Counted from the first letter of the stretch, positions 10,874 to 29,958 are shown. The stretch is DNA of 64,000 nucleotides from Candidatus Marinacidobacterales bacterium (GCA_965226495.1 OZ245365.1:256001-320000); one strand, 5' to 3'. Numbers and translations are program-made. The notes: generated from the letters alone by a model not told the origin.

Positions 10874-10963
10874 CGAACGTAGCCATGAGCCCATGCGGAG
10901 TCGCCAGTCGACGGAGCATGAGGCGTGGGGTGGGGCCCCGAGCCACTTATGGAAGAGTGAGCG
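10874..10963 (+). repeat. Dispersed structured repeat family A, copy 1
   Basis: Core GAGCCCATGCGRAGTCGCCAGTCGACGKAGCATGAGGCGTGGGG also occurs at ~20.8, ~34.0 and ~46.0 kb. Confidence 0.9.
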
Positions 10964-16450: not shown

Positions 16451-18007
16451 ATGACCCAACCTTTCGTTAACGAACCTTTGACCGACTTCAGCCGTGATGA
16501 CGACCACAAGGCCATGCTCGAGGCCCTGGCTTACGTCAAGCACGGAACGGGTGCCGAGTACGATCTCACCGTCGGGGGAGAGCGGCTGCGAACCGATGAC
16601 AAGCTGCGCTCCACCAATCCGGCCCGCCCTAACGAAGTAGTAGGGATCTTTCAGCGAGCCTCTTTGGAGATCGCATCGAAGGCGGTCGATGTTGCCCACG
16701 AGACGTTCCAGACCTGGCGGCACACCAGAGCGACCGAACGTTCCCGGTATCTGTTCGATGCTGCCAACGCTATGCGGAGACGTAGGCATGAGCTGTCGGC
16801 GTGGATGGTGCTGGAAGCGGGAAAGAGTTGGGTCGAGGCCGATGCCGACACCGCGGAGGCCATCGACTTCCTCGAATTCTACGCCCGGGAGAATCTACGC
16901 CTCGCTCAACCGCAGCCTTTGGTGGAGATCCCTTCCGAGGCCAGCGAGCTTCACTACATTCCGCTCGGCGTTGTGGTCGTCATTCCACCATGGAACTTTC
17001 CGCTAGCCATCCTCGCCGGCATGACCAGCGCCGCTATCGTGGCCGGCAACACCGTCGTCTTGAAGCCCTCTTCGGACTCGCCCACCATCGGTCGGAAATT
17101 CTTTGAAATCATGGAAGAGGTGGGCTTGCCGGAAGGAGTCTTGAATTTTGTCACCGGCTCCGGGGCCACTGTGGGCGACACCCTCGTCACCCATCCCAAG
17201 ACCCGAATGATTGCTTTCACCGGTTCCAAGGAGGTTGGACTCGGGATCAACGAGAAGGCGGCCCGCGTCACGCCCGGTCAGATCTGGATCCGGCGCGTCA
17301 TTGTCGAGATGGGTGGCAAAGACGCCATCATCGTGGATCGGGATGCCGACCTCGACGCGGCGGTGGAGGGCGTGGCGTCCTCCGCCTTCGGCTATCAGGG
17401 GCAGAAATGCTCCGCTTGTTCTCGCGTCGTTATCGACGAAAAACTCTACGATACATTCCTCGAGAAACTGACGGAACGAACGGAAAAACTCCAGATCGGT
17501 CCAACCGACGACCCCCGTCACACCTTCGGACCGGTCATCAACCGTTCGGCGATGCAGTCCATCCTGGGGTACATCGAAAAAGGTGTTTCGGAAGGCGGAC
17601 GCTTGCTGACCGGCGGTGGTGTAATACCCGCCGCCGAAGGGTATTTCATTCGCCCGACGATCATCGCCGATGTGGATCCAAAGGGGACCATCGCGCAAGA
17701 GGAAATTTTTGGGCCGGTGCTCGCGGCTCACAAGGCCAAGGACTTTGACGAGGCTCTCAAACTCGTCAACGACACCGAGTACGGGCTCACCGGTGCGGTT
17801 TATACCGGAAGCCGAGACAAGATCGACCTAGCGAAGAAACACTTCCACGTAGGCAATCTCTATTTCAACCGGAAGTGCACGGGGGCAATGGTTGGTGCCC
17901 ATCCCTTCGGGGGATTCAACATGTCGGGCACCGATTCTAAGGCCGGTGGCCGAGATTACCTGTTGCTCTTCACGCAGGCAAAGTCACTGTCCGAGAAGAT
18001 TCGATAA
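16451..18007 (+). CDS. pruA: Delta-1-pyrroline-5-carboxylate (L-glutamate gamma-semialdehyde) dehydrogenase
   Basis: EADADTAEAIDFLEFYAR, IPPWNFP, FTGS, EMGGKD, GQKCSACSR, EEIFGP and GGFNMSGTDSKAGG. Confidence 0.93.
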   Translation: MTQPFVNEPLTDFSRDDDHKAMLEALAYVKHGTGAEYDLTVGGERLRTDDKLRSTNPARPNEVVGIFQRASLEIASKAVDVAHETFQTWRHTRATERSRYLFDAANAMRRRRHELSAWMVLEAGKSWVEADADTAEAIDFLEFYARENLRLAQPQPLVEIPSEASELHYIPLGVVVVIPPWNFPLAILAGMTSAAIVAGNTVVLKPSSDSPTIGRKFFEIMEEVGLPEGVLNFVTGSGATVGDTLVTHPKTRMIAFTGSKEVGLGINEKAARVTPGQIWIRRVIVEMGGKDAIIVDRDADLDAAVEGVASSAFGYQGQKCSACSRVVIDEKLYDTFLEKLTERTEKLQIGPTDDPRHTFGPVINRSAMQSILGYIEKGVSEGGRLLTGGGVIPAAEGYFIRPTIIADVDPKGTIAQEEIFGPVLAAHKAKDFDEALKLVNDTEYGLTGAVYTGSRDKIDLAKKHFHVGNLYFNRKCTGAMVGAHPFGGFNMSGTDSKAGGRDYLLLFTQAKSLSEKIR

Positions 18008-18129
18008 TTTGGTGCCGTTCCTCCTCCGTTTCCTCTCCCCTTTGGGGAGAGTTGGCCGTCAAAACACGTTGTGCCAACGAACAAAGTGGCCAGACGGCGG
18101 TGAGGGGGCCAGGGCGCCGTAGTTCTTTA

Positions 18130-18981
18130 CTACGGTGTACTCTCGCCGAACAAGACGTTTTCCTCGCCGAGCTCCTTAATTTTCTTTTCCATCTGCTCGA
18201 CTAGTTTGTCTCGTCGCGCGATGATGGCCTTGATCTGCCCACCCATCAAGATGCTATCGAGCTTAGCATCTAGCTGCTCCTTGTCGAGGGCCTGCAACTT
18301 CGCCATTAGCTGTCGATCGTATTGGGAGGGAAGTTTGTTGTCCTTGCCGATTTTTTTCTTGCTCAGAAAAGCCCGGGAGTGGTCGATGAGGATGACGTCG
18401 TGCTCGGGGTCAACCAGGAAGTTACGGGCATTGCGGTCCTCGTTCAGTATCAGGTTGTCGAATATCTTCATGCGGGAGAGCTGGTGGCTCCAGTCCTCGG
18501 TGGCAGGAACGATATTCATGACGTCTCCGTAGAGCCTGCAGTCATCGACCCAGAGTTGAAGAGAACCGTTCTTCTTGTTGATCTTTCTGATGATGGTTGG
18601 AGGGACCATGTTGAGCCCCACCATCTTATCTAGCTCGTACGCGGCGACCTCGGCCTCGTAGCTCTCCCAGAACCCGCCGGCTCGGCCTCGCTTGATGGGT
18701 TTGAAGACTGCCTTGAACTCCATGTCTCCCTTCTTGAGTATTGCGGAACTTGGTTTGGTGACACCGACGCCGATGTCTTCGATGGAAACCACCTCAGCCG
18801 TCCTGAGGAGCTCCTCGAACTCCGCCTCGCGCCCCACCCAAATTTTGACCGTGCACTGTTTCGCGCCCTGTGCCTGCGGCTGAGCTACTGCCGGCGCGCT
18901 GTCGGTGGCGGCCTCCTGAGCCTGGCCGGCGGCGACACTGGACAGTACGAAGGGAAGCAACAAAAGATACTGTCTACTCAT
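18130..18981 (-). CDS. Secreted atypical kinase-like protein (PI4K type II / FAM20C / HipA-like fold)
   Basis: Signal peptide MSRQYLLLLPFVLSSVAAGQA. Motifs IGVGVTKP, AVFKP, EVAAYELD, GSLQLW, FDNLILNEDRNARN and LIDHSRAF. Confidence 0.7.
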   Translation of the reverse strand: MSRQYLLLLPFVLSSVAAGQAQEAATDSAPAVAQPQAQGAKQCTVKIWVGREAEFEELLRTAEVVSIEDIGVGVTKPSSAILKKGDMEFKAVFKPIKRGRAGGFWESYEAEVAAYELDKMVGLNMVPPTIIRKINKKNGSLQLWVDDCRLYGDVMNIVPATEDWSHQLSRMKIFDNLILNEDRNARNFLVDPEHDVILIDHSRAFLSKKKIGKDNKLPSQYDRQLMAKLQALDKEQLDAKLDSILMGGQIKAIIARRDKLVEQMEKKIKELGEENVLFGESTP

Positions 18982-20699
18982 GGTTTGACCTCCTGTCTTG
19001 GTAAATCCACCGCATCAGTCAATTTCTGAAGCTGTTGCCGGGCACCGTCGCCGGCAGCTGGATCGGATTGCACCGCGAGCTCGAAGGCTTCTCGGGCCTT
19101 GGTGGTATCGCCCAAGCCGAGATAGGCGAGCCCCAGGTGGTAATAGGCTTCGTAGCTCGGGTTGCCTTTCTCGATGCTTTTTTCCAGACTGTCGATCGCT
19201 TGGGGGTACTGACGAAGAATGACCTGAAGGCGTCCGTAGGTCAGAAGAAAAGAGGGGTTGTCGGGTTGTTCGCTGAGTGCCTGCCGGATCATGTCCTCGG
19301 CAGAATTCAGAGCCAAGTTGTGATCTAAGGAGAAACGGGCCAGTAGGTTCTTGAGATGCGGATTGTCGGGTGTCCGTTCGACGACTGTCTTGAGACCGTC
19401 CAGATAGATCAGGTACTGTTCGCGCGCCTCCTCACTCATTCCGAGGTCACGGTAGATATCCCCCAGTGTCTGGTTGTACCGGAAGGGGATCGGCTTGGGT
19501 ATCCGCAAGAGCTGCTCCAAAGCCAGCCTGGCATTCGGGAGGTCGGCCTTGGCTTGGTACTCTTCCCAGAGCTTCACATGGACGGTCACGTTGTCCTTAT
19601 CCACAGCCGCTACTTCTTCTATGTAGGCGGCCAAGTTCGTCTCATCCAGGTACTCGGGAAGCTTCACCTTTCCGCCGGGATGAATGGCGCTCAACGTGTC
19701 GCCCTCGATCTCCAGCGCCACCTGGTGGCCCCCTTCGTAGAGCTCGAGCATGCCGGTGTCGATGCTGATGTGTTTGCTGCCGAAGCGCGGCTCGATGACG
19801 CCTTGGGTCACGGTATGTCCCACGACCATGCGCTCCGCGTCCAGGTTGGCAAGAATCTGGTCCACCTCTTCCTTATGCGCATCCTGCTGCTTGCGGCTGA
19901 GTGGGACCTCTGAGAGCCCGCGATATTGTAGAGGCGACTTCAAGTGAAAGGTTAGCCCCTCCTCGAGGGGCGCCTTGCCGCTCAACTCCTTCTCGACTTC
20001 CTCATTCACCTTCTCGATGCCGAGCGCCGAGACCTCCTCGCTCCAATCGCCGTGCGTGAAGACGATACCGTTCAAACGAACTGCCACAGGGTTTCCGCGT
20101 ATCCACTTGCCATATTGACCACTCTTTGCGAACGCCGCGCGGTGGCCGAAGTAGCCGTGAGGGTATTTTTGAAGAAATATTTCCTGGGTCTCTTCCTTCG
20201 AAGGGATGATCCGGTTCGCTGATCTTGCCTCTTTGAGGTGTTCGTCATAGTAGATCTTAAAGGCGCGTTCCCACGTTTTCTCTGACTTCACATCGGAGAA
20301 GGTCTCGTATATCTCCGGTGTGATGTAGTCGGTGATCCCGACCATGTTGAAGGCTTCGTGGTTGCCGATGAGGACATGGACGCGGCCACCCGCCTTCTTG
20401 GCTTTCTTCTGGAGCTCCATGTAGAAGTCCAAACTCTTACGCGAGTCGGCGCCTCTATCGATCACGTCACCGACTTGAACCAAATGAGCCTCGCCACCGA
20501 TCCAATTGAGCTCGTCGTCGATCAGCTTGGCGTTCTTGAGCACGGTAAGAAGACTTTCGTACGCCCCGTGCACATCGCCTACCGCCACGATGCGCGGAAC
20601 GCCCGTCCAATCGTAGCGGAGCCGAGCCGCATCGGCAGGGACGTCGGCGGGCCCGACGGTGAACGCGGTCAGCAGGGCCAAAATGGCGAGTTTTTTCAC
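18978..20699 (-). CDS. Secreted PPP-family (Shewanella-like) metallophosphoesterase with C-terminal TPR repeats
   Basis: Signal peptide from GTG 20699 (KKLAILALLTAF..A). Motifs GDVHG, GDVIDRG, GNHE, THG, GHT and IDTG. TPR AYYHLGLAY..LG. 4-nt overlap with the kinase gene. Confidence 0.88.
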   Translation of the reverse strand: MKKLAILALLTAFTVGPADVPADAARLRYDWTGVPRIVAVGDVHGAYESLLTVLKNAKLIDDELNWIGGEAHLVQVGDVIDRGADSRKSLDFYMELQKKAKKAGGRVHVLIGNHEAFNMVGITDYITPEIYETFSDVKSEKTWERAFKIYYDEHLKEARSANRIIPSKEETQEIFLQKYPHGYFGHRAAFAKSGQYGKWIRGNPVAVRLNGIVFTHGDWSEEVSALGIEKVNEEVEKELSGKAPLEEGLTFHLKSPLQYRGLSEVPLSRKQQDAHKEEVDQILANLDAERMVVGHTVTQGVIEPRFGSKHISIDTGMLELYEGGHQVALEIEGDTLSAIHPGGKVKLPEYLDETNLAAYIEEVAAVDKDNVTVHVKLWEEYQAKADLPNARLALEQLLRIPKPIPFRYNQTLGDIYRDLGMSEEAREQYLIYLDGLKTVVERTPDNPHLKNLLARFSLDHNLALNSAEDMIRQALSEQPDNPSFLLTYGRLQVILRQYPQAIDSLEKSIEKGNPSYEAYYHLGLAYLGLGDTTKAREAFELAVQSDPAAGDGARQQLQKLTDAVDLPRQEVKP

Positions 20700-20811
20700 A
20701 ATGGTGCTCAGTGCGCTCTCCGGCCTTCGCTGGCCCACCGTAGGCCAACCAAGCTAGCTTCGGCCAGGTCCCGCCGAAGTCGATCAGTACATCGACTGAC
20801 GGAGGCGGACC

Positions 20812-20863
20812 CCCCCACGCCTCATGCTCCGTCGACTGGCGACTCCGCATGGGCTCAAGGCTG
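20812..20863 (-). repeat. Dispersed repeat family A, copy 2 (partial), next to a REP-like hairpin at 20758-20779
   Basis: Reverse complement of the family A core. Confidence 0.85.
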
Positions 20864-20893
20864 TGATCGCGCGCTTGCCGCCTCGATAGCACC

Positions 20894-21808
20894 CTAGCTG
20901 CTTGTACGAGGCTCAGACTGGAACAACGAGCTGAACAATCCCTGCAGCAGATCCACGTGATCTGCCAATACTTCGAACAACCGTTCCCGCTCGATACGGA
21001 GAGCCAAGCCTTCCCTCACCACATTGCCGCGCCAACCGAAGGGCGTTCCGGCGAGGGTTTCGTCGATGCCCAGCGCGTCGCCGGCCTTGACCATGAAGGC
21101 ACCCCCGCCGGTGTCTTCGGGAGGCTCGATCGATAGCTCCCCAGAGAGGATGATGTGGATCGCGGGTTGATCTCCCTCGCCGAAAATACGCTCACCTTTA
21201 AGGAGTGGTAACTCTTGGGCGATGGCGGTGAGGGCAAGTAGCTCCTCAGCCGTCGTTCTGGAAAAAACGGGTAGCTCTTGGAGTAGGAGCACTTTCTCTA
21301 TGGGTTTCAACTCCTCACCAACTCCCGTGACTAGGGACCTTTCTTCCGGGTGAACCGCGCGCTGACGGAGGCTCGGCCTTGCGTTGCCCGAAGGAGCGCT
21401 AAGCAACATCCGGAAGAGGCCCTGAGCCAGCTCGATGTTGTCCGACAAGAGGACACGAAACTCTTCGCTGGCGATGGCAAGGCAAATGGATGTTTCGACG
21501 GCAAGCGCGGTTTCTCGTAGGGGGGCGCCTTCCAGTACCTCCCGGAAACCGAACAGCGTCGGCGGACCCACTTCTTCTGCCTCCCGATGTTTACCCGAGA
21601 CGCGGATCTTGCCCTCGACCAAGACCTGGATGTACTCCACGGTTGCGCCTTCTTCTTGAATCGTGCGGCCCTCTTCGTGGCGCACCTGGCGGGCAATAGA
21701 TGAAATGCGAAAGAGCTCGTCGACGCCGACGAAGCTGAAGAGGGGGATCTGTCTCAGATTGTCGGCCAGCACGACGGCGGGAACCGGAGGAAGTAGCTCA
21801 AACTGCAT
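20894..21808 (-). CDS. Tandem cyclic-nucleotide-binding domains; probably the frameshifted C-terminus of the upstream transporter
   Basis: Two cNMP-like domains (L..IPLFS...L..I, I..EG, G..FG..E; L..LPVFS..T.EEL, IFGEGD). Overlaps the upstream ORF by 11 nt at a CCCC run. Confidence 0.75.
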   Translation of the reverse strand: MQFELLPPVPAVVLADNLRQIPLFSFVGVDELFRISSIARQVRHEEGRTIQEEGATVEYIQVLVEGKIRVSGKHREAEEVGPPTLFGFREVLEGAPLRETALAVETSICLAIASEEFRVLLSDNIELAQGLFRMLLSAPSGNARPSLRQRAVHPEERSLVTGVGEELKPIEKVLLLQELPVFSRTTAEELLALTAIAQELPLLKGERIFGEGDQPAIHIILSGELSIEPPEDTGGGAFMVKAGDALGIDETLAGTPFGWRGNVVREGLALRIERERLFEVLADHVDLLQGLFSSLFQSEPRTSS

Positions 21809-24602
21809 GGGGCCTCTCCTCTCCTAACCGATGGGCAGCCAGGGCGAAAGAGGCCGCTTCGAAAACAACGAAATCCTTGACATCGCGGAAAGCCAGGACT
21901 TCCTCGATGTCGTCCGCGAGAGACCAAAGCTTCCGTTCCCGAACCAGGTCGATGGCGGTGGCAGCCACCACCGGGTCGTCGTCGTAGATGAGTCGGGTTA
22001 ATGTTTCCTCTATACTGCGCACTCGGGTCTTCAAGAAGACGTTTCCCTTGCGTACTTTCTCCTCGAGCGGCAGCTCTTCGATGATGGGCATGAGTCGCTT
22101 CCTGAGGTCCCTGCTGAGCATGTTGTCGAGATACTCGGTGGCGCTGGCGCGGGAACGAGCTTCTCCGTGCTCGATCGTCCAACGTGCTGCCACCATGTCT
22201 TTCCACGGGTAAATCAGTCCCAAAAGCCCGTAGATGCGGTCCATCGCCCGTCGCGTCTTCTCCTCGACCGCACGGCCGACGAGCGAATCCGTGGACAGGC
22301 CCTCTTTTTCGAAGAGATTGTAGTGGATCCCCAAATAACGATAGTAGCGAAGGGCGTCCCGAAGGGCGAGTTTCTCCACCGGTTCGGCGTTGACCGTGAG
22401 CTCGGTGTGCTCCCGGCGCAACCTCCCTAGAGCGGTCACCGCCTTGTAGCGAATGAAGCCGTCGTCGTCCTCGAGTGCCTTGAGAAGGATGTCGATCGAC
22501 TTCTGTGATGGAATGAGGGCGAGGGTCCCCGGGATGTGACGCCGGACCCACAGGTTCTCATCGGGGTCGCTCAAGAAATAGGCGAGAGTGTCAAGCACCC
22601 CCTCTCCGTAACTGACCAGTACCTGCCGGGCGCTGTTCTTGAGCTGCCGATGACGCAAAAGCGATACCAACGAAGGCACGAACATATAGTCCGAGGTGCC
22701 GAAACGACTCACGCTCTCTATCGCTTCCTTAGCGACGTCGGTATGGGAATCGTACATTAGCGGGATCAGAAGACTCCGGAACACCGGATCCTTGATCTGG
22801 GGGATCGCGCGTGCGACCTGGCGGCGGCCCCCGGCCGCTCCGTCGCGCGTGTCGGAAGCGAGTCTTCTAAGGGCGCTCTCTGCAGAGTCCACGTCCTCGC
22901 TCCGCTCGCTTCCTCCCAGCGCCACCGCGGCGGCAGAGACTATGCGAGGATCGGAGTCGTCTAAATAGGGCCGCATCAGTTCGGTGATCTTCTCACTCCG
23001 GATAGCGGCCAGGGCGGACACGGCCGCGGCACGCACGTCGGGGCTTTCGTCCTTCAGCGCTCGCTCGACGGAGGGAGCCCAACGCTCCATCAGGTCGGGT
23101 CGTGCCGACTCCATGGCGGTCAGGGCGCGCGACCGCACGTCGGGCGAGGCATGATGGAGCAAGAGCGGCGTGATGAGGTTCCGCTTGTCGAGCGAGTCGA
23201 GTAGATCGATTGCGTAGAGAACGCGGTGCTCCTCGGGACTGCCGAGCTCTTCGACCAGAGCCTCTACGGTCGCCGCGTCGCCCAGCTGAGGCCTCATGCC
23301 CACCGGTTCGAGCTCCAAGTGCTCGATGCTCCTGCGGAAGCTTGCGGTGTACTCTTTCCTCGCCCTTCGTGCGAGAAACAGCCACAGAACACAAAAAGTC
23401 AGACTAAGAAAACTGAGCTGCACCCAGGTCGCACCGAATACTTTGATGGAGAGCAAGAGCAGCAGCGAGCCAATCCCTTTGCCTATGAACCGGTCGGCGG
23501 TGACGTCTACGAAGGCCTTGGCCTTTAGTTTGATCTCCTTAGGGAGAGGTTGAAAGAGAACTTCGCGAGTTGTTTTGTCTAGGCTGTAACGCAGGGAGGT
23601 ATCGGTTATGCGGGCCACCATCGTTGACCATAGAACGGGGTTGAACAAGATGAGTAGGGCGGTGGCGCCCAGGCTCATCGGCAAAACCATCAGCGCAAAG
23701 CCGATGCCGAGGAGCCGGTGAATGCGGCTCGTGAAGTAAACCTGGATGACAAAGCTGATTGCCGACAGGTAAAAAGTAATCTGCGCCAGGAAACCGACGA
23801 TACCGTCTTCATTGCTTACGAATTGCTCGGCGGCCATGTTGAGCTGCTGCTCGATGGTCACCGCGCCCAGAGCTGCAAACCCGATCACGAGAGAGATGAG
23901 TCGTAGATGCTTCGACTGACGCAGCATCGCTAGGGCTTCGCCGCCGCCCACGGTCTCCTTGGTGGGCTGATCCGAACCACCCTCTCTTGGTTGAGAGCGC
24001 CGCTGTATCTGAATAACCAGGAAGAAGGACACGACCAAGAGACCTGCACTGAGGAGAATCAGATTCACCGCTCCGACGGACTCCGCTAGTAAAGAAGTGA
24101 GTCCGGCGCCGGTCATGCCTCCCAGGCTGGCGCCCCCGCCAATGAACCCAAAGATTCGTTTTGCCTGGCGAGGATCGTAGATGTCGTTGGCGAGGGTCCA
24201 GAACTGACTGATGAGGAAGATCCCTACAAGCAACCGACCCCAGAAGTAGAAGGCCACGGAAACCCAAGTGCCGCCGGTCTGGAACAGGAACCAAAATGCA
24301 ACCAACGTCCCTACTACTGCGATCTGGGTCCCAGGCAGCACCCAAAGTCGAGGGACCTTGCCGACCAGGCGGCTGTAGAACTGCATGATGAAGCCCATGC
24401 CGACGCCGGCAAAGAGCATGACCCACGGCAGGTTGTCAGCCCCTACGTCGGCAATGAATTTTCCCGTAGCGGAGGGTTTGATGTTGTTGTATGCGGTCAT
24501 AACCAGGAAGGAGTAGATAAACATCATGACCGCGGTGGCGCCCTCACCTTCCCGGAGAGTGAGGATGGGAGAAAGAAGACGACGGATAAGTGAATCAGTC
24601 AT
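21798..24602 (-). CDS. Npt1/Npt2 (NTT/TLC, MFS) nucleotide translocase domain fused to HEAT repeats
   Basis: About 12 TM in the N-terminal half with FLVMTAY..IKP, ADNLPW, SQFWTLANDIYD..QAKRIFG.IG.G and RYSLDKTTRE.LF.PLP. HEAT repeats D.SPDVR.AAV.AL follow. Confidence 0.82.
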   Translation of the reverse strand: MTDSLIRRLLSPILTLREGEGATAVMMFIYSFLVMTAYNNIKPSATGKFIADVGADNLPWVMLFAGVGMGFIMQFYSRLVGKVPRLWVLPGTQIAVVGTLVAFWFLFQTGGTWVSVAFYFWGRLLVGIFLISQFWTLANDIYDPRQAKRIFGFIGGGASLGGMTGAGLTSLLAESVGAVNLILLSAGLLVVSFFLVIQIQRRSQPREGGSDQPTKETVGGGEALAMLRQSKHLRLISLVIGFAALGAVTIEQQLNMAAEQFVSNEDGIVGFLAQITFYLSAISFVIQVYFTSRIHRLLGIGFALMVLPMSLGATALLILFNPVLWSTMVARITDTSLRYSLDKTTREVLFQPLPKEIKLKAKAFVDVTADRFIGKGIGSLLLLLSIKVFGATWVQLSFLSLTFCVLWLFLARRARKEYTASFRRSIEHLELEPVGMRPQLGDAATVEALVEELGSPEEHRVLYAIDLLDSLDKRNLITPLLLHHASPDVRSRALTAMESARPDLMERWAPSVERALKDESPDVRAAAVSALAAIRSEKITELMRPYLDDSDPRIVSAAAVALGGSERSEDVDSAESALRRLASDTRDGAAGGRRQVARAIPQIKDPVFRSLLIPLMYDSHTDVAKEAIESVSRFGTSDYMFVPSLVSLLRHRQLKNSARQVLVSYGEGVLDTLAYFLSDPDENLWVRRHIPGTLALIPSQKSIDILLKALEDDDGFIRYKAVTALGRLRREHTELTVNAEPVEKLALRDALRYYRYLGIHYNLFEKEGLSTDSLVGRAVEEKTRRAMDRIYGLLGLIYPWKDMVAARWTIEHGEARSRASATEYLDNMLSRDLRKRLMPIIEELPLEEKVRKGNVFLKTRVRSIEETLTRLIYDDDPVVAATAIDLVRERKLWSLADDIEEVLAFRDVKDFVVFEAASFALAAHRLGEERPHAV

Positions 24603-24710
24603 AAGGTCTTTCGCTCTCTCAGCTTAGAAGTGCGGTGGATAAACGACCACCGGGAGAGTTATGTTATTTCAGTCTTGCCGTTGCGGCAAGTAAGGTGTTT
24701 GCGGTCGGAT

Positions 24711-25580
24711 TCAGGGCACGCGGAGGCTGGCCCTGGCTCGTTCGACTGATTCCATATACTCAGCGACCCTCTCAGGATCGACCGGATTCTCACCCTGGCC
24801 GTCAACTTTCATGCTAGTCCCAACGATGGTTCCGTCGGCGTAGCCAAGGAAATCCGCGATGTTGTCGGCCGCGGTTCCCGACCCCATGAGAATGGGCCTC
24901 TCTTTAGAGAGTTCTTTGGCTCGTCGCACCTTGTCGAGTGGCGGGGCGTCCCCGGTCATCCGCCCAGATACGATAAGTGCATCGGCTAGGTAGAAATCGG
25001 TCCATTCGATGTGGGTCTCGAGATCCAGGCCGGGGAACGGAACTGAATGCTTCTTGTCGACATCTGCGAATATCTTGATGTGCTCCGCATGCAGATGTTT
25101 CCGCTGGCGGAGCAGGCCGGCCGCACACCCGTGGTCGAGCTCTCCGGTATCCCAAAGCCTAGCGCCGGTCAGGATGCAGATGCGGACGAAACTTGCCCCG
25201 GAGGCTACCGCGATGGAGAGCGTGATTTCTCCGCCGTTGTGGATTACGTTGATGCCGGTGGGCACTTTGGCTGCTTTCACGACCTCACGTGCGGCGACCG
25301 CCTGGGCGGTCATCCCTTCGGGCAGTACTTCTTTCCCCACGAAGTACGGATGGTCCCACATGTTCTCCACGATGAGTCCGTCGACACCGGCTTGTTGGTA
25401 GGTCTCCACATCCCGAAGAGCCCATTCGATGATCGGCTCGATGCCTTGGCCGTCATAGTTGGGAGCACCGGGGAGGGGGGGCAAGTGCACCATGGCGATG
25501 ACGGGTTTTTCCACCCCGAACATATCGCTTAGGTGGGTTAAGCGAAGTGCGTCTTGCTTCTTCTTCCATTCGGGAGTCAA
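24711..25580 (-). CDS. BtpA/SgcQ family protein
   Basis: KPVIAMVHLPPLPGAP, GVDGLIVENM.D.PY, GINVIHN, ADVDKKH and DGTIVGTS.K. TTG start at 25580 with SD AAGGAG overlaps the upstream TGA. Confidence 0.85.
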   Translation of the reverse strand: MTPEWKKKQDALRLTHLSDMFGVEKPVIAMVHLPPLPGAPNYDGQGIEPIIEWALRDVETYQQAGVDGLIVENMWDHPYFVGKEVLPEGMTAQAVAAREVVKAAKVPTGINVIHNGGEITLSIAVASGASFVRICILTGARLWDTGELDHGCAAGLLRQRKHLHAEHIKIFADVDKKHSVPFPGLDLETHIEWTDFYLADALIVSGRMTGDAPPLDKVRRAKELSKERPILMGSGTAADNIADFLGYADGTIVGTSMKVDGQGENPVDPERVAEYMESVERARASLRVP

Positions 25581-26603
25581 CGGGACGGTCTCCTTTTTCT
25601 CCTGGCTCTTCGCGATAGGAGCTCCATGGTATCGCGAACCGCGGGATAGAAGCGCTGGAGCCTTGGACTGTTCTTCTCGCGCTCGATGATTTTGGCGAGC
25701 TCGGCTCGCGTTACCGCTTTGTGGGAGGATTCCGAGCCTACGACCGCGGCACCCGCGGCGTTTCCCAAGACGGCACAGGCCTCCGGACTTAACATCCGAG
25801 AGCATGCCAAGGATATAGCCGGCGTTGAAGGCGTCGCCGGCGCCGCACGTGTTGATGGCCTTGGACTCGAAGTGCGGTACTCGGAAAGTGGCTTGTTCCG
25901 TATAGACCCGACAGCCGCCGGCCCCGAGGGTCACCGCCACCTGATCTACTCCAAGCTCCCGGGCCTTACTCGCCGCGCGACTCAATCGACGCTCGTCGAA
26001 TGCGAGTCTCAGCTCTTGGGCACTCGGCAACGCCAGGGTGACGTGGCGTAAGGCACGGCGGAGCACGTCCGATGCACCGACGGCCGCCTCCCAGCCGAAG
26101 TCGAGCGATGTGGACGCCCCTCGCTTCCGTGCCGTTTCGAGGGCAAGCAACGCAGCCCGTCGCGACTCCTGTTCGATCAACGAATATCCGGAGACATGGA
26201 GGTGCCGAATGCCGTCGAGGGCTTCAACGATTCCTTCCCGCTGCAGCGCCATGTTCGCTCCGCGGACACCGATCAAAGTGCGCTCACCGTTCTCGACCAC
26301 GGGAATGACGCAGATGCCGGTTGGACGGGCGGGGTCTTTTTGAACTCCCCCGGTATGAACGCCGGCGCGGGTTAATTCTTTGAGAAGCGCTTGACCCTCG
26401 GGGTCTTTGCCGACCCGCCCGATGACGCTCGTTGGAACGCGGAGACGCGCCAACACGATGGCCGTATTGGCGGCCGAGCCCCCGAGAGCCCAGGCGCTGC
26501 CTTGGGCGGGGTTGTCCCGACCGGGTCTTGGAAACGAGCGGAGTCGTATGAAAAGATCACGGTTGATATCGCCAAGGACGGCAGCCTGCGGGCGTTTCGC
26601 CAA
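25577..26603 (-). CDS. PfkB/ribokinase family carbohydrate kinase with a +1 frameshift near 25790
   Basis: GGSAANTA..LARL, IGRVGKD..G, VTLG..G and NTCGAGDAFNAG. The expected C-terminal helix SPEACAVLGNAAGA lies in a different frame. Confidence 0.8.
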
Positions 26604-27365: not shown

Positions 27366-29958
27366 TCAGGTCTTGACTGCGTAGGTTGCGGCCAGTAGCT
27401 CGGCAACATTGCGGAAACGCCCATCCGGCTCTTCGGCCAGACATCGGGCAATGATCTGGTCCAGCGCCACGGGGATTCCAGGCACGAGCTTCTGAAGGGT
27501 AGGGGGAGCACCGTTGGCTGCCGCTTGAGGGCTGGCGGGGTGGAGCCCAGTCATTCCGTGGAAGAGCAGCCCGCCCAGCGAGTAGATGTCGGTTCTCGCG
27601 TCGGCTGGGTTGCCGGCGAGGAACTCCGGAGGCGCATATCCATCGCCTTTGCCGAGCGCAGGCGTACGGAGGGCGCCCAAGCCGAGACCGGATAGACGTA
27701 ATTTACCGCCCTTGGCGACCAGTACATCGGTCAACTTCAGATCCTTGTGTAAAACCTGCCGTTGATGCGCGTATGCCAGGGCAATGCACAGGTTGGTGAG
27801 GAGATCGATCGCCTGCCTGACGTTCAGGCGTCGGTCGCCCGATAAGATCGCCGCCAGGCTGCGACCCTCTACGAACTCCATGATTACGGTTTTTTGTCCG
27901 CGCATCTCAGTCAATCCGAGCAGGCGAACCAGGTTTGGATGATCGAAGCTGCGAGCGATCTTCGCCTCTGCCAAGAAACGTTTGACGGTCTCATCGTTCT
28001 GGAGGAGGTCTTTCCTCAAGATCTTCGCGACGACCGGCCGGCCATTGCGAGTATCGAGGGCTTTGAACGTTCCGCCCAAGAGACCGCGGCCCAGTTCCTC
28101 AATCAACTTGAAATGAGGAGTGGGCGCAGTGCCTGCCGTCGGAGCCGAAGCTTTCGGAGTCGCGGCGGTCGGACGCGGTGGTGCAGCGGCCGGTGCGGGT
28201 GTTGCGGGGACAGTAGGCTGCCGCGGTGCTTCCGTCGCTGGTGCCGCCGAAGCCGGGGGTAACACCGCAGGTGCTAGCGTGGCCGGAGCGACAACTGCGG
28301 CAGGCGCGGCGGGCGGTGGCATCGGCGCAGCAGGCGGCGCGGCAGGCGGAGCGGCAGGCGCCGGAGCCTGTTGAGCCTGTTGAGCCTGTTGAGACTGCTG
28401 CGCGGCGGACGCCGGATCGCTCAAACGTGCAATCCTTTCTTCCACATCCTCGTACCCGTAGCGCTCGGCCATTACCTGACGGAACGTCTCGATCGCTTCC
28501 TCGCGCTTGCCGAGTTTTTCGTAGACCAATCCCAGGCAAAAGTAATGTTCCAATGTCTGAGGTCCGATGGGCCGATCGCGCAACACTCGCTGGAGCTTCT
28601 CCTGGGCGAGGGAGACCATGTTCTTGTCGAGGAAGAGGCGCGAGAGTAGAACCGTCGCGGTCTCGTAGTTCTCATCCGACGGTTCGACTCGCTGAAATAG
28701 CTGGATTGCCCGTTCCCCTTCACCCCGACCATGAGCCAACTTGCCCGCCTCGAAGAAACGCCCTGCCTTTTCGAAGAGCTCAGAAGCCTTGTTCTCTTCT
28801 CCAACCTCGGAGTACAACTTGGCCGCCATCAGCGCGTCACCGCCGCGTTCGAACATCTCTGCGGCTTTTTCCTTTTTTTCCGCGAGGAGATAGACGTTCG
28901 CCGCCTGAAGAAGAGACTCGCTCTGCTCGTAGCACTTCGCGGCGGAGGTGAGATCGCCCACCGACTCGAAAAGCTCGGCCGCCCGTAGGTTGTCCCCGCC
29001 CTTTAGGAATTCCTCAGCGGCCTTCGCGGCATCGCCTTGGCGGAACGCAACCTCGCCTCTGATTGCGGCGGCCCTTTCTGTCTGGCCCGCTTTCTCGAAC
29101 ATCTCCGCGGCTTTCCCCAGCTCCTCTTCTTTGAGGTGCAGCTCTCCGGCTTGGTCGAACTTGCCCATACGGGCCGCGAGCTCGGCCGCCTTCTTGGACA
29201 GGCGGGCACGTTGGTAGATATTGGCCGCCTTCTCCAGTTCACCCACCTTTTCGTACAGCTGTCCTGCGATCAAGGCGACCTTGGCTTCCCGATCGGAAGA
29301 GGAGGAGATGAGGCCGCCGCCTCCGAAAGAGCTAGTGGCTAGCCAGTGTTTCTCGTAGTTCTCGGCTGCCTTCAGTTGTTTCCCCATTTTTTCGAAGGCC
29401 TGAGCGGCCTGAGGATGGTAGGAAACTTGCTCGTAAAGCTCGGCGGCTCGGTCGTATACCTCGGCGTCGTAGTAGAGTTTCGCCGCGTCGATCTTCTGCC
29501 CGTTTTGTTCGTAGATTTCCGCGGCCTTCGCGCCATGTCCGGAGGTAACTAGAGTATTGGCGGCACGCTTCCAGTCGTCCGCTCGCCGATACATTTCCGC
29601 GGCGTGCTCATAATGTTCGAGCTTCTCGTACAGGGTCCCCAGCGGCAGTGTATTCTTCGGCTTCCTGGTACGTTTCTATGGCCTCTTCGTACCACTCCGC
29701 GTCTTCGTAGAGTTGGGCCGCCCCCACGATGTCACCTTTCTTCTTGAGGTTCGTGACTTCACGAGTGAATTGCATCGCACGATACTTCTCGCCTCCGAAA
29801 CGATCGATGATCTGGTCCCAGACTCCTGACTCCTCGAGCTTGCTCCGCAACGGTGGGAACAGATAGGTCTTGATGACGTAGATGGCGAAGAGAATAAGGG
29901 CGATCGGTACGAAGATATCGACGATCGGTGCCGGCAAGAAGCTTTTAAGGAAACTCAT
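27366..29958 (-). CDS. Membrane-anchored TPR/alpha-solenoid protein with C-terminal Hanks-type kinase-like domain; +1 frameshift at ~29637-29640
   Basis: N-terminal TM, repeated A..AAE.YE/FEKAG units, Pro/Ala linker and kinase subdomains LGRG, VVAK, HPNLV, HKDLK and DIYSLG. Removing one G from GGGG joins the two ORFs (AAG-TLYEKLEHYEHAAEMYRR). Confidence 0.8.

Follow-up and report, generated by a model that had tools for sequence, protein, structure and literature searches.

The 64,000-nucleotide stretch of DNA considered here (GCA_965226495.1 OZ245365.1:256001-320000; hereafter the window), which belongs to a Candidatus Marinacidobacterales bacterium, contains a locus of four co-oriented minus-strand open reading frames (ORFs). 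In the order carrier, cyclic-nucleotide-binding protein, phosphatase, and kinase, they encode a membrane carrier of the NTT nucleotide-transporter family with a HEAT-repeat tail, a protein with tandem cyclic-nucleotide-binding (cNMP-binding) domains (cNBDs), a PPP-type phosphatase, and a kinase resembling the eukaryotic Fam20 and PI4KII enzymes (Table 1). The recurring combination of this transporter with an exported kinase and phosphatase suggests that ATP is carried out of the cytoplasm for reversible phosphorylation in the cell envelope. An earlier reading, made from the sequence alone, had proposed co-oriented minus-strand genes for such a system at this place, and ORF translation together with Pfam assignments bears it out. 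Its first item, a single gene combining NTT, HEAT, and cNMP-binding domains, holds as regards the domains and fails as regards the gene, since the cNMP-binding part is encoded by a separate ORF with an 11-nucleotide overlap.

The 283-residue product of the last gene is predicted, from both its sequence and a structural model, to be a stripped-down kinase of the Fam20/PI4KII fold, with about 240 residues and intact catalytic residues. The only Pfam family that it matches above the cut-off is PF00454 (PI3_PI4_kinase), and the pass is marginal (29.1 bits at a cut-off of 27.1); most of its homologs have a precomputed match to the same family. It has no match to PF06702 (Fam20C) at E 0.01 and by Pfam score is not a member of that family, which is matched by some of the homologs (P0092 and P0101, precomputed; P0258, 29.4 bits versus 26.8). 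It also falls below the cut-off of the SCO1664 family (TIGR03843; 60.8 versus 172.4 bits). A word-indexed search returned 606 matches for the kinase family, and its cluster representatives number 7204 at E 1e-3, 3332 at 1e-10, and 852 at 1e-30. Nine residues (K94, E106, E111, D182, R183, N184, N187, D200, and H201) are invariant in 30 aligned homologs, and the atypical kinase motifs picked out by the sequence-only reading are thus conserved. The pattern K94-E111-D182-N184-N187-D200 is retained in 83 of the 93 kinase domains found in the window and 80 related loci. The cysteine pattern of the alignment appears mixed by eye, and no sign of disulfides was drawn from it.

Comparison of the kinase family profile with solved structures gave the best matches to FAM20A (8.3e-9), Caenorhabditis elegans Fam20 (1.8e-8), and FAM20C (6e-8), followed by weaker matches to a Fam20B-type xylose kinase (7.8e-7; 7.9e-7 for the weakest of five Fam20 chains) and to PI4K2B (PI4KIIβ, 5e-4). 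The HMMER alignments place the FKP lysine, the glutamate of helix C, the catalytic loop with DRN, and the metal site (I/L)D opposite their Fam20 counterparts. The AlphaFold 2 model of the kinase (predicted local distance difference test score, pLDDT, 85.3; predicted template modeling score, pTM, 0.80) is disordered in residues 1-39, and the protein can be divided into signal-like residues 1-22, a disordered linker up to about residue 40, and a kinase core at residues 43-281. The closest structures are Hydra Fam20 (Z 20.4, root-mean-square deviation 2.7, 230 residues aligned) and zebrafish DrFam20C1 (Z 20.3, deviation 3.0, 237 residues aligned), then C. elegans Fam20 (Z 18.6) and PI4KIIα (Z 18.4, 208 residues aligned), whereas CtkA (Z 15.2), CotH (11.7), and HipA (11.5) rank lower; Foldseek agrees. 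Thus, among the kinase types that the sequence-only reading had put forward for comparison (FAM20C, PI4K2A, HipA, and CotH), the model falls into the Fam20/PI4KII fold, with Fam20 as the best match. As the core has about 240 residues, and 230-237 of them align to chains of 351-418 residues, the Fam20-specific insertions are missing.

The Fam20 kinases (the protein kinase Fam20C, the xylose kinase Fam20B, and the pseudokinase Fam20A; 4kqa, 5yh0, 5xom, 5wrr) are therefore the best matches of the window kinase in profile as well as in fold. Fam20 works behind a signal peptide in a compartment that needs a supply of ATP, as the window kinase, with its signal-like N-terminus, would too; for eukaryotic Fam20, this supply comes through the ATP/ADP exchanger of the endoplasmic reticulum. 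Unlike Fam20, the window kinase is bacterial and is paired or fused with a PPP phosphatase, and its core of about 240 residues is smaller than a full-size Fam20 domain of 350-430 residues. In a published survey, FAM20 is called eukaryote- or Metazoa-specific (PMC9758233). PI4KIIα and PI4KIIβ share PF00454 with the window kinase, the profile match being weaker than that of Fam20 (5e-4 versus 8e-9). These are cytoplasmic, palmitoylated lipid kinases of eukaryotes, whereas no lipid substrate is indicated for the window kinase. Finally, CtkA of Helicobacter pylori (3akj) is a small bacterial secreted atypical kinase of the same fold group, with no significant sequence similarity (E 0.53 for K2, a second kinase family described below), and we know of no phosphatase or carrier partner for it.

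Five further matches to the kinase family are found in the genome of the window, six in all (Table 1). Apart from this family, the Atlas contains a cluster of 258 bacterial proteins of about 333 residues, commonest in Myxococcota, 90% of which have the Pfam Fam20C domain; judging by this Myxococcota-rich cluster, bona fide PF06702 proteins occur in bacteria outside the kinase family of the window.

The phosphatase, which the sequence-only reading had described as a PPP enzyme with TPRs, fits that description: it matches Metallophos with 46.9 bits as well as TPR families, and its translation contains the PPP motifs GDVHG, GDVIDRG, and GNHE. The catalytic domain matches that of the cold-active protein-tyrosine phosphatase from Shewanella (2z72/1v73, E 1.9e-29), with which it has GDxHG, GDxxDRG, and GNHE in common. 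By these motifs and this similarity, the protein is a predicted Shelph-type PPP enzyme. Beyond the Shewanella enzyme, it has the C-terminal TPRs and an N-terminus of signal-like character, and it is translationally coupled or fused to a kinase. The start codon assumed for the longest ORF has an alternative, GTG at 20699, which would give an N-terminus beginning with MKKLAILALLTAFTVG.

Kinase and phosphatase are predicted to form one module, translationally coupled by a 4-nucleotide overlap with a strong Shine-Dalgarno sequence and, at the extreme, joined by gene fusion. The kinase ATG overlaps the phosphatase stop codon (ATGA), and the overlap of 4 nucleotides reported in the sequence-only reading can be read directly in the DNA. 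A second phosphatase-kinase pair is present elsewhere in the same genome (C1:6023989-6025830), and a PPP domain lies within 2.5 kb of 30 of the 93 kinase domains. Fusions, for which a survey of the three families had been proposed, are common between phosphatase and kinase. In particular, Metallophos is found in 13 of the 17 kinase homologs longer than 497 residues, and the best 150 representatives include 22 long proteins, 19 of which combine Metallophos with the kinase domain in one chain. A single signal peptide at the N-terminus of the fused proteins is followed by the phosphatase and then the kinase, the same succession as that of the genes in the window. Other kinase fusions include an additional PD40 beta-propeller, TPRs, or a second kinase domain.

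Export signals were called by a heuristic rule of our own, which requires a small-x-small site after a hydrophobic stretch of 10 residues that has no charges and lies close to the N-terminus. Of the kinase homologs with at least 245 residues (9 of 120 homologs were dropped as shorter fragments), 108 of 111 satisfy it, versus 131 of 363 control ORFs from the same genome; the three homologs that it misses are one with an obvious signal peptide and two over-extended gene calls. Among phosphatase homologs, a segment of basic and then hydrophobic residues is found at most 70 residues upstream of GDxHG in 22 of 23 proteins, a count from which 13 overlapping-frame rows without the motif were dropped, leaving L016 and L043 outside it. 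By this measure, the signal-peptide-like N-termini described in the sequence-only reading are conserved in homologs of both enzymes. As basic residues precede the hydrophobic stretch, both catalytic domains would lie outside the membrane with or without cleavage of the segment.

The carrier consists of a TLC/MFS membrane domain (residues ~1-430) and a tail of HEAT repeats (~440-934), and matches TLC (PF03219) with 55.5 bits at a cut-off of 21, HEAT_2 with 101.9, and MFS_1 with 43.1. Searched with phmmer against solved ADP,ATP carriers, the chlamydial-type and plastid proteins, it matches 9j3n (E 8.3e-10) and 9j3j (E 9.6e-8), and it shares with them the motifs FW..AN..AK and K.K.KA..DV. Hydropathy analysis, in which the predicted segments overlap, places a basic stretch after the last membrane helix. 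The membrane domain is homologous to that of the characterized NTTs (the chlamydial carrier and plastid ADP,ATP carrier 1), from which the window protein differs by its free-living host, its HEAT and cNBD additions, and the outward net direction that we propose. Counter-exchange is the mechanism of the NTT family, as stated in the study of PamNTT1 (PMC1951785).

The 304-residue protein encoded next to the carrier matches cNMP_binding (PF00027) with 67.4 bits in two stretches. Carrier homologs number 2097; among the 120 listed, the best 73 (about 930 residues) are without PF00027, and 41 of the next 47 (about 1230 residues) have it fused. This distribution suggests that the separation of the cNBDs is a trait of the clade and that the 304-residue protein is the partner of the carrier. 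With its TLC domain, C-terminal HEAT repeats, and cNBDs immediately downstream, the pair shows the features of the NTT-HEAT-cNBD clade, in which the cNBD is fused or immediately downstream. The same TLC, HEAT, and cNBD architecture is described by Major et al. 2017 (PMC5381601), who present NTT-HEAT and NTT-HEAT-cNBD proteins in split and fused forms with a single origin of the fusion. The window carrier represents the split form, its two cNBDs being located on a different protein, in contrast to the fused NTT-HEAT-cNBD. According to the same paper, these proteins are widely conserved in bacteria, including cyanobacteria and chlamydiae, and are uncharacterized, a role in the regulation of ATP uptake having been proposed; the characterized NTTs are importers or exchangers of varied substrates. 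Neighboring exported kinases or phosphatases are not mentioned in the passages of the paper covered here.

The loci related to that of the window are labeled as Acidobacteriota, mostly as Vicinamibacteria and 'Candidatus Marinacidobacterales'. In 30 of 80 such loci, some of which have short flanks, an NTT-HEAT match was detected by tblastn within 5 kb of the kinase; L001, with a remnant, and L014, where the match is weak and partial, are counted among the 30. The phosphatase is present as well in 16 of these 30, and it is found without a carrier nearby in 8 of the 80. Mapping with hidden Markov models distinguishes two paralogous types of carrier and at least four gene orders. The order of the window (carrier, cNBD, phosphatase, kinase) is repeated in L003 and L006. 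In the second order, which is found in 11 loci as well as in L002 and the truncated L076, a carrier without cNBD is divergent from a carrier-cNBD gene followed by the kinase. The third, also with 11 loci, has the cNBD-less carrier divergent from a kinase followed by the phosphatase, and the fourth covers the more complex arrays of L018, L047, and L077, where two or three kinases occur. The genome of the window contains one clear NTT-HEAT gene in 6.34 Mb, besides a weak TLC match at 6183264, so that the probability of adjacency by chance should be well under 1%.

On the kinase tree, a quick one with midpoint root and SH-aLRT as its only support values, one clade has 23 carrier-linked kinases among its 31 rows, the clade of the window has 5 among 19, and a small clade has 2 among 7. 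Similarly, the kinase and the carrier co-occur at the level of genomes. In a sample of 401 genomes of the phylum, one of them unpublished (G049), the kinase is found in 102 and a TLC gene in 185, and the latter is present in 101 of the 102 kinase-positive versus 84 of the 299 kinase-negative genomes; the sole kinase-positive genome without TLC is a 92%-complete bin. The association on which the sequence-only reading depended therefore recurs in other genomes, both as synteny of the carrier with the kinase or phosphatase, in several gene orders, and as genome-level co-occurrence.

Of five genomes labeled as other phyla (L064, L073, L074, L078, and L017), four have TLC matches; the labels are doubtful, as exemplified by a 'Cyanobacteriota' bin with a 58%-identical carrier, and nothing was drawn from them. 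In the close relative L001, whose kinase is 84% identical to that of the window, the genes for the carrier, cNBD protein, and phosphatase are replaced by ORFs that look transposase-like by eye (L001:6700-10400). Remnants of carrier residues 1-65 and phosphatase residues 507-578 persist there, and the kinase ORF ends after 114 codons, which may reflect decay after the loss of partners or a sequencing error.

A second family of exported kinases, here termed K2, also accompanies the carrier. It was found in 80 of the 401 genomes, 74 of them TLC-positive, and among the 80 are the complete genomes G073 and G334 and the genome of the window, where the K2 copies are located away from the carrier. The gene directly upstream of the carrier in G334 encodes a K2 protein of 561 residues with a signal-like N-terminus and the motifs IIKFDP, NHDDTRAQN, and LIDFGS, and is itself preceded by an Omp85-like gene. 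In G334, G270, G010, G361, G269, and G146, K2 and a TLC gene share a strand, K2 being immediately upstream and separated from it by no more than 210 nucleotides. If both kinase families are pooled, 121 of 127 kinase-bearing genomes are TLC-positive.

The K2 protein (about 560 residues) has no Pfam match, and its profile gives a best E of about 0.5 against PDB chains (0.53 for CtkA). A sequence kinship with the Fam20-like family was considered and rejected, the hhalign E values of 0.16 and 0.083 being not significant; thus only the fold links the two families. The K2 model (pLDDT 80.2, pTM 0.84) comprises a kinase domain at about residues 105-441 followed by a C-terminal FN3-like sandwich, and is closest to CtkA (Z 13.2), Fam20C1 (12.8), Hydra Fam20 (12.2), and PI4KIIα (11.8). 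Every one of the 14 chains that reach Z 8 belongs to this group of atypical kinases, CotH, HipA, and MavQ among them, and residues K146, D278, N283, and D303 are invariant in 21 K2 sequences. As two sequence-unrelated families of exported kinases with intact catalytic sites accompany the carrier homologs, supply of nucleotide by the carrier would be the simplest account of the association.

At the junction ATGCAGTTTGA, the ATG of the cNMP-binding protein lies 11 nucleotides inside the end of the carrier gene. The segments 18000-20841 and 20828-24800 show zero differences from contigs of four public runs belonging to four studies, one of which is possibly the source of the window itself; since these contigs reproduce both segments, neither gene junction is an assembly slip. 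The window lies in a single-contig genome of 6.34 Mb. The spacer of 155 nucleotides between the cNMP-binding protein and phosphatase genes contains a repeat, of which 36 further copies in both orientations were found in the genome, those in the window being near 10930, 33979, and 46049. At this repeat the short-read contigs of all four runs break and the read depth is raised, and it looks like an intergenic element of the repetitive extragenic palindrome or miniature inverted-repeat transposable element type. The spacer has no terminator-like site, and its folding energy is not above that of shuffled sequences (z -0.30). A promoter scan of 17900-24900 yielded no promoter-like sites, with terminator-like sites at chance level.

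Table 1. Features of the window and further kinase genes of the same genome (G000)
Feature	Position	Strand	Description
NTT-HEAT carrier gene	21798-24602	minus	934 residues; TLC/MFS membrane domain and HEAT-repeat tail
Tandem-cNMP protein gene	20894-21808	minus	304 residues; PF00027 in two stretches
Repeat in cNMP-phosphatase spacer	20812-20865		about 52-66 nucleotides; multi-copy in genome; strand unassigned
PPP phosphatase gene	18978-20738	minus	586 residues (longest ORF); Metallophos and TPR families, TPRs C-terminal
AGGAGG ribosome-binding site	18989-18994	minus	inside the end of the phosphatase gene, 7 nucleotides upstream of the kinase ATG
Fam20/PI4KII-like kinase gene	18130-18981	minus	283 residues; PF00454
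PfkB-BtpA ORF	24711-26603	minus	630 residues; PfkB sugar-kinase and BtpA domains
Hanks-type Ser/Thr kinase gene	27366-29594	minus	TPRs, Ala/Pro-rich linker
Further kinase-family matches, own genome	G000:C1:6023989-6025830, 6034071-6034853, 6205127-6205849, 5008585-5009058, 5191042-5191275		
K2 copies, own genome	G000:C1:4142628-4144244, 5873242-5874720		both away from carrier; K2 family also noted at L089:4146-7514

The carrier gene is preceded, at a distance of 108 nucleotides, by an ORF in which PfkB and BtpA domains are connected via a basic low-complexity linker. This ORF is also upstream in L003 and L006, its two halves match in separate pieces in L001, and a genuine fusion and a faulty frame are both conceivable. 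Also upstream in the window is a gene for a Hanks-type Ser/Thr kinase, a kind of enzyme frequent in the phylum, and a TPR-Pkinase gene adjoins the Fam20-like kinase in some related loci (L019, L023, and L076). In one carrier-unlinked kinase subclade (L039, L049, L069, and L071), the gene upstream of the kinase is conserved and encodes a GAF-PAS histidine kinase that includes a receiver domain. Some Pfam assignments of neighbors in related loci stem from merged ORFs, i.e. long antisense ORFs in high-GC DNA.

The best reading of the data presented above, and one that in our judgement stops only a little short of being probable, is that the carrier exports ATP and thereby feeds phosphorylation in the periplasm. 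Here we infer the transported substrate and its direction, the gating by cyclic nucleotides, the periplasmic localization, and the target of the kinase. The NTT-HEAT carrier would exchange cytoplasmic ATP for periplasmic ADP, following the counter-exchange logic of its family, in a direction set by the gradients of the free-living cell itself. Its detachable two-domain cNBD partner, on the cytoplasmic side, would allow the carrier to be gated by cyclic nucleotides. The Sec-exported Fam20-like kinase would spend the exported ATP on a substrate in the envelope or periplasm, possibly a protein, as the TPR domain and the partner resembling a tyrosine phosphatase would suggest, and the exported Shelph-type phosphatase would remove the phosphate. 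The sequence-only reading had reached the same interpretation, and none of the computational tests run, on N-termini, fold, and synteny, refutes it; the link is not exclusive, given unlinked kinase copies and TLC genes without the kinase.

Several points weigh against ATP export. The carrier scores 55 bits with the NTP/NDP exchange family TIGR00769, far below the curated cut-off of 387.2, and is a remote relative of the characterized NTTs. Those known to us import ATP. Outer-membrane porins should moreover let the exported ATP leak. The signal calls come from a crude heuristic that is positive for 36% of the controls. As to the link, it is not exclusive: most kinase copies are unlinked, and many TLC-bearing genomes have no kinase. 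Neither carrier nor phosphatase is nearby in 42 of the 80 kinase loci, one kinase clade has a carrier-linked member in 1 of 36 rows, and a TLC gene occurs in the 1.5-kb flanks of just 3 of the 30 best K2 loci. The complete genomes G073 and G334, from the same class, have a gene of NTT-HEAT-cNBD size, yet a search for the Fam20-like kinase finds nothing in them even at E 1e-3, and both kinase families are absent from 64 genomes with a TLC gene. Since the sampled genomes are related, the co-occurrence figures overstate the independence of the observations. Finally, the fused kinase and phosphatase, instead of being a writer-eraser pair, could catalyze successive steps on a lipid, a glycan, or a small molecule.

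It is conceivable, and in our estimate unlikely, that the module is real and tied to the TLC carrier without any export of ATP, so that the carrier would import a product of the module (for instance ADP or a different nucleotide formed or set free outside), transport the acceptor substrate, or be a target of regulation by the module. The distance of the carrier from the characterized NTTs leaves room for such a function, the latter being importers or exchangers with varied substrates according to Major et al. 2017 (PMC5381601), and the 64 TLC genomes with neither kinase family indicate that the carrier has some role of its own. Nevertheless, a kinase with a conserved ATP site still needs a phosphate donor outside the cytoplasm, which this explanation does not supply, and a link shared by two unrelated families of exported kinases points to something that all kinases need. 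A second alternative, which we regard as decidedly unlikely, is that the phosphatase and kinase make up a bifunctional enzyme for remodeling an envelope lipid, glycan, or small molecule, a phosphate being taken off by one domain and another attached at a different site by the other, with carrier adjacency reflecting shared regulation and not supply. It agrees with the frequent fusion of both activities in one polypeptide, with closest folds that include Hydra Fam20 (Z 20.4), which acts on sugars, and PI4KIIα (Z 18.4), which acts on lipids, and with the kinase-phosphatase pairs that have no carrier nearby (8 of 80 loci). However, it leaves unexplained both the TLC co-occurrence in 101 of 102 genomes and a carrier link that survives rearrangements, and protein substrates would agree at least equally well with the TPRs and with the resemblance to a protein-tyrosine phosphatase.

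That the kinase and phosphatase are secreted effectors working in or on other cells that have ATP, as proposed for CtkA, with an indirect link to the carrier, seems very improbable to us. CtkA is indeed among the structural neighbors (Z 15.2 for the window kinase and 13.2 for K2), and several paralogs exist per genome (six matches in that of the window), but the N-terminus is of the Sec type alone, no secretion-system genes are conserved beside the module, and the carrier link is left unexplained. A chance or lineage-specific neighborhood without function, to which the exact four-gene order in only 2 of 80 related loci (L003 and L006) and the loss of the carrier, cNBD, and phosphatase genes to transposase-like insertions in the close relative L001 might point, is hardly credible, as at least four independent gene orders, two carrier types, two kinase families, the fusions, and the co-occurrence already contradict it.

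No description linking NTT-HEAT proteins to exported kinases or phosphatases was found in the literature covered, outside which remain the supplements of Major et al. 2017 that possibly list neighborhoods, and none of bacterial Fam20-fold periplasmic kinases was found. The carrier architecture is already in print, and every part of the locus belongs to a known family or is a variant of one. In textbook bacteriology, the periplasm counts as free of ATP, and the periplasmic phosphotransfers known to us use other donors. If ATP export by the NTT-HEAT carrier is true, this view would be overturned and a new layer of envelope regulation added, the NTT-HEAT(-cNBD) family would acquire a testable function, and compact relatives of the Fam20-type secretory kinases would be known from bacteria (7204 cluster representatives at E 1e-3). 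A more far-reaching possibility, which we consider doubtful at present, is a closed periplasmic phosphorylation cycle in Acidobacteria, where a gated exchange of ATP out for ADP in, perhaps together with phosphate, would allow several families of Fam20-fold kinases to write on envelope proteins or glycans and Shelph phosphatases to erase the marks. In that case, the NTT-HEAT family would do in bacteria what the suppliers of ATP do for the secretory pathway of eukaryotes, and lumenal phosphorylation of the Fam20 type would be of bacterial origin.

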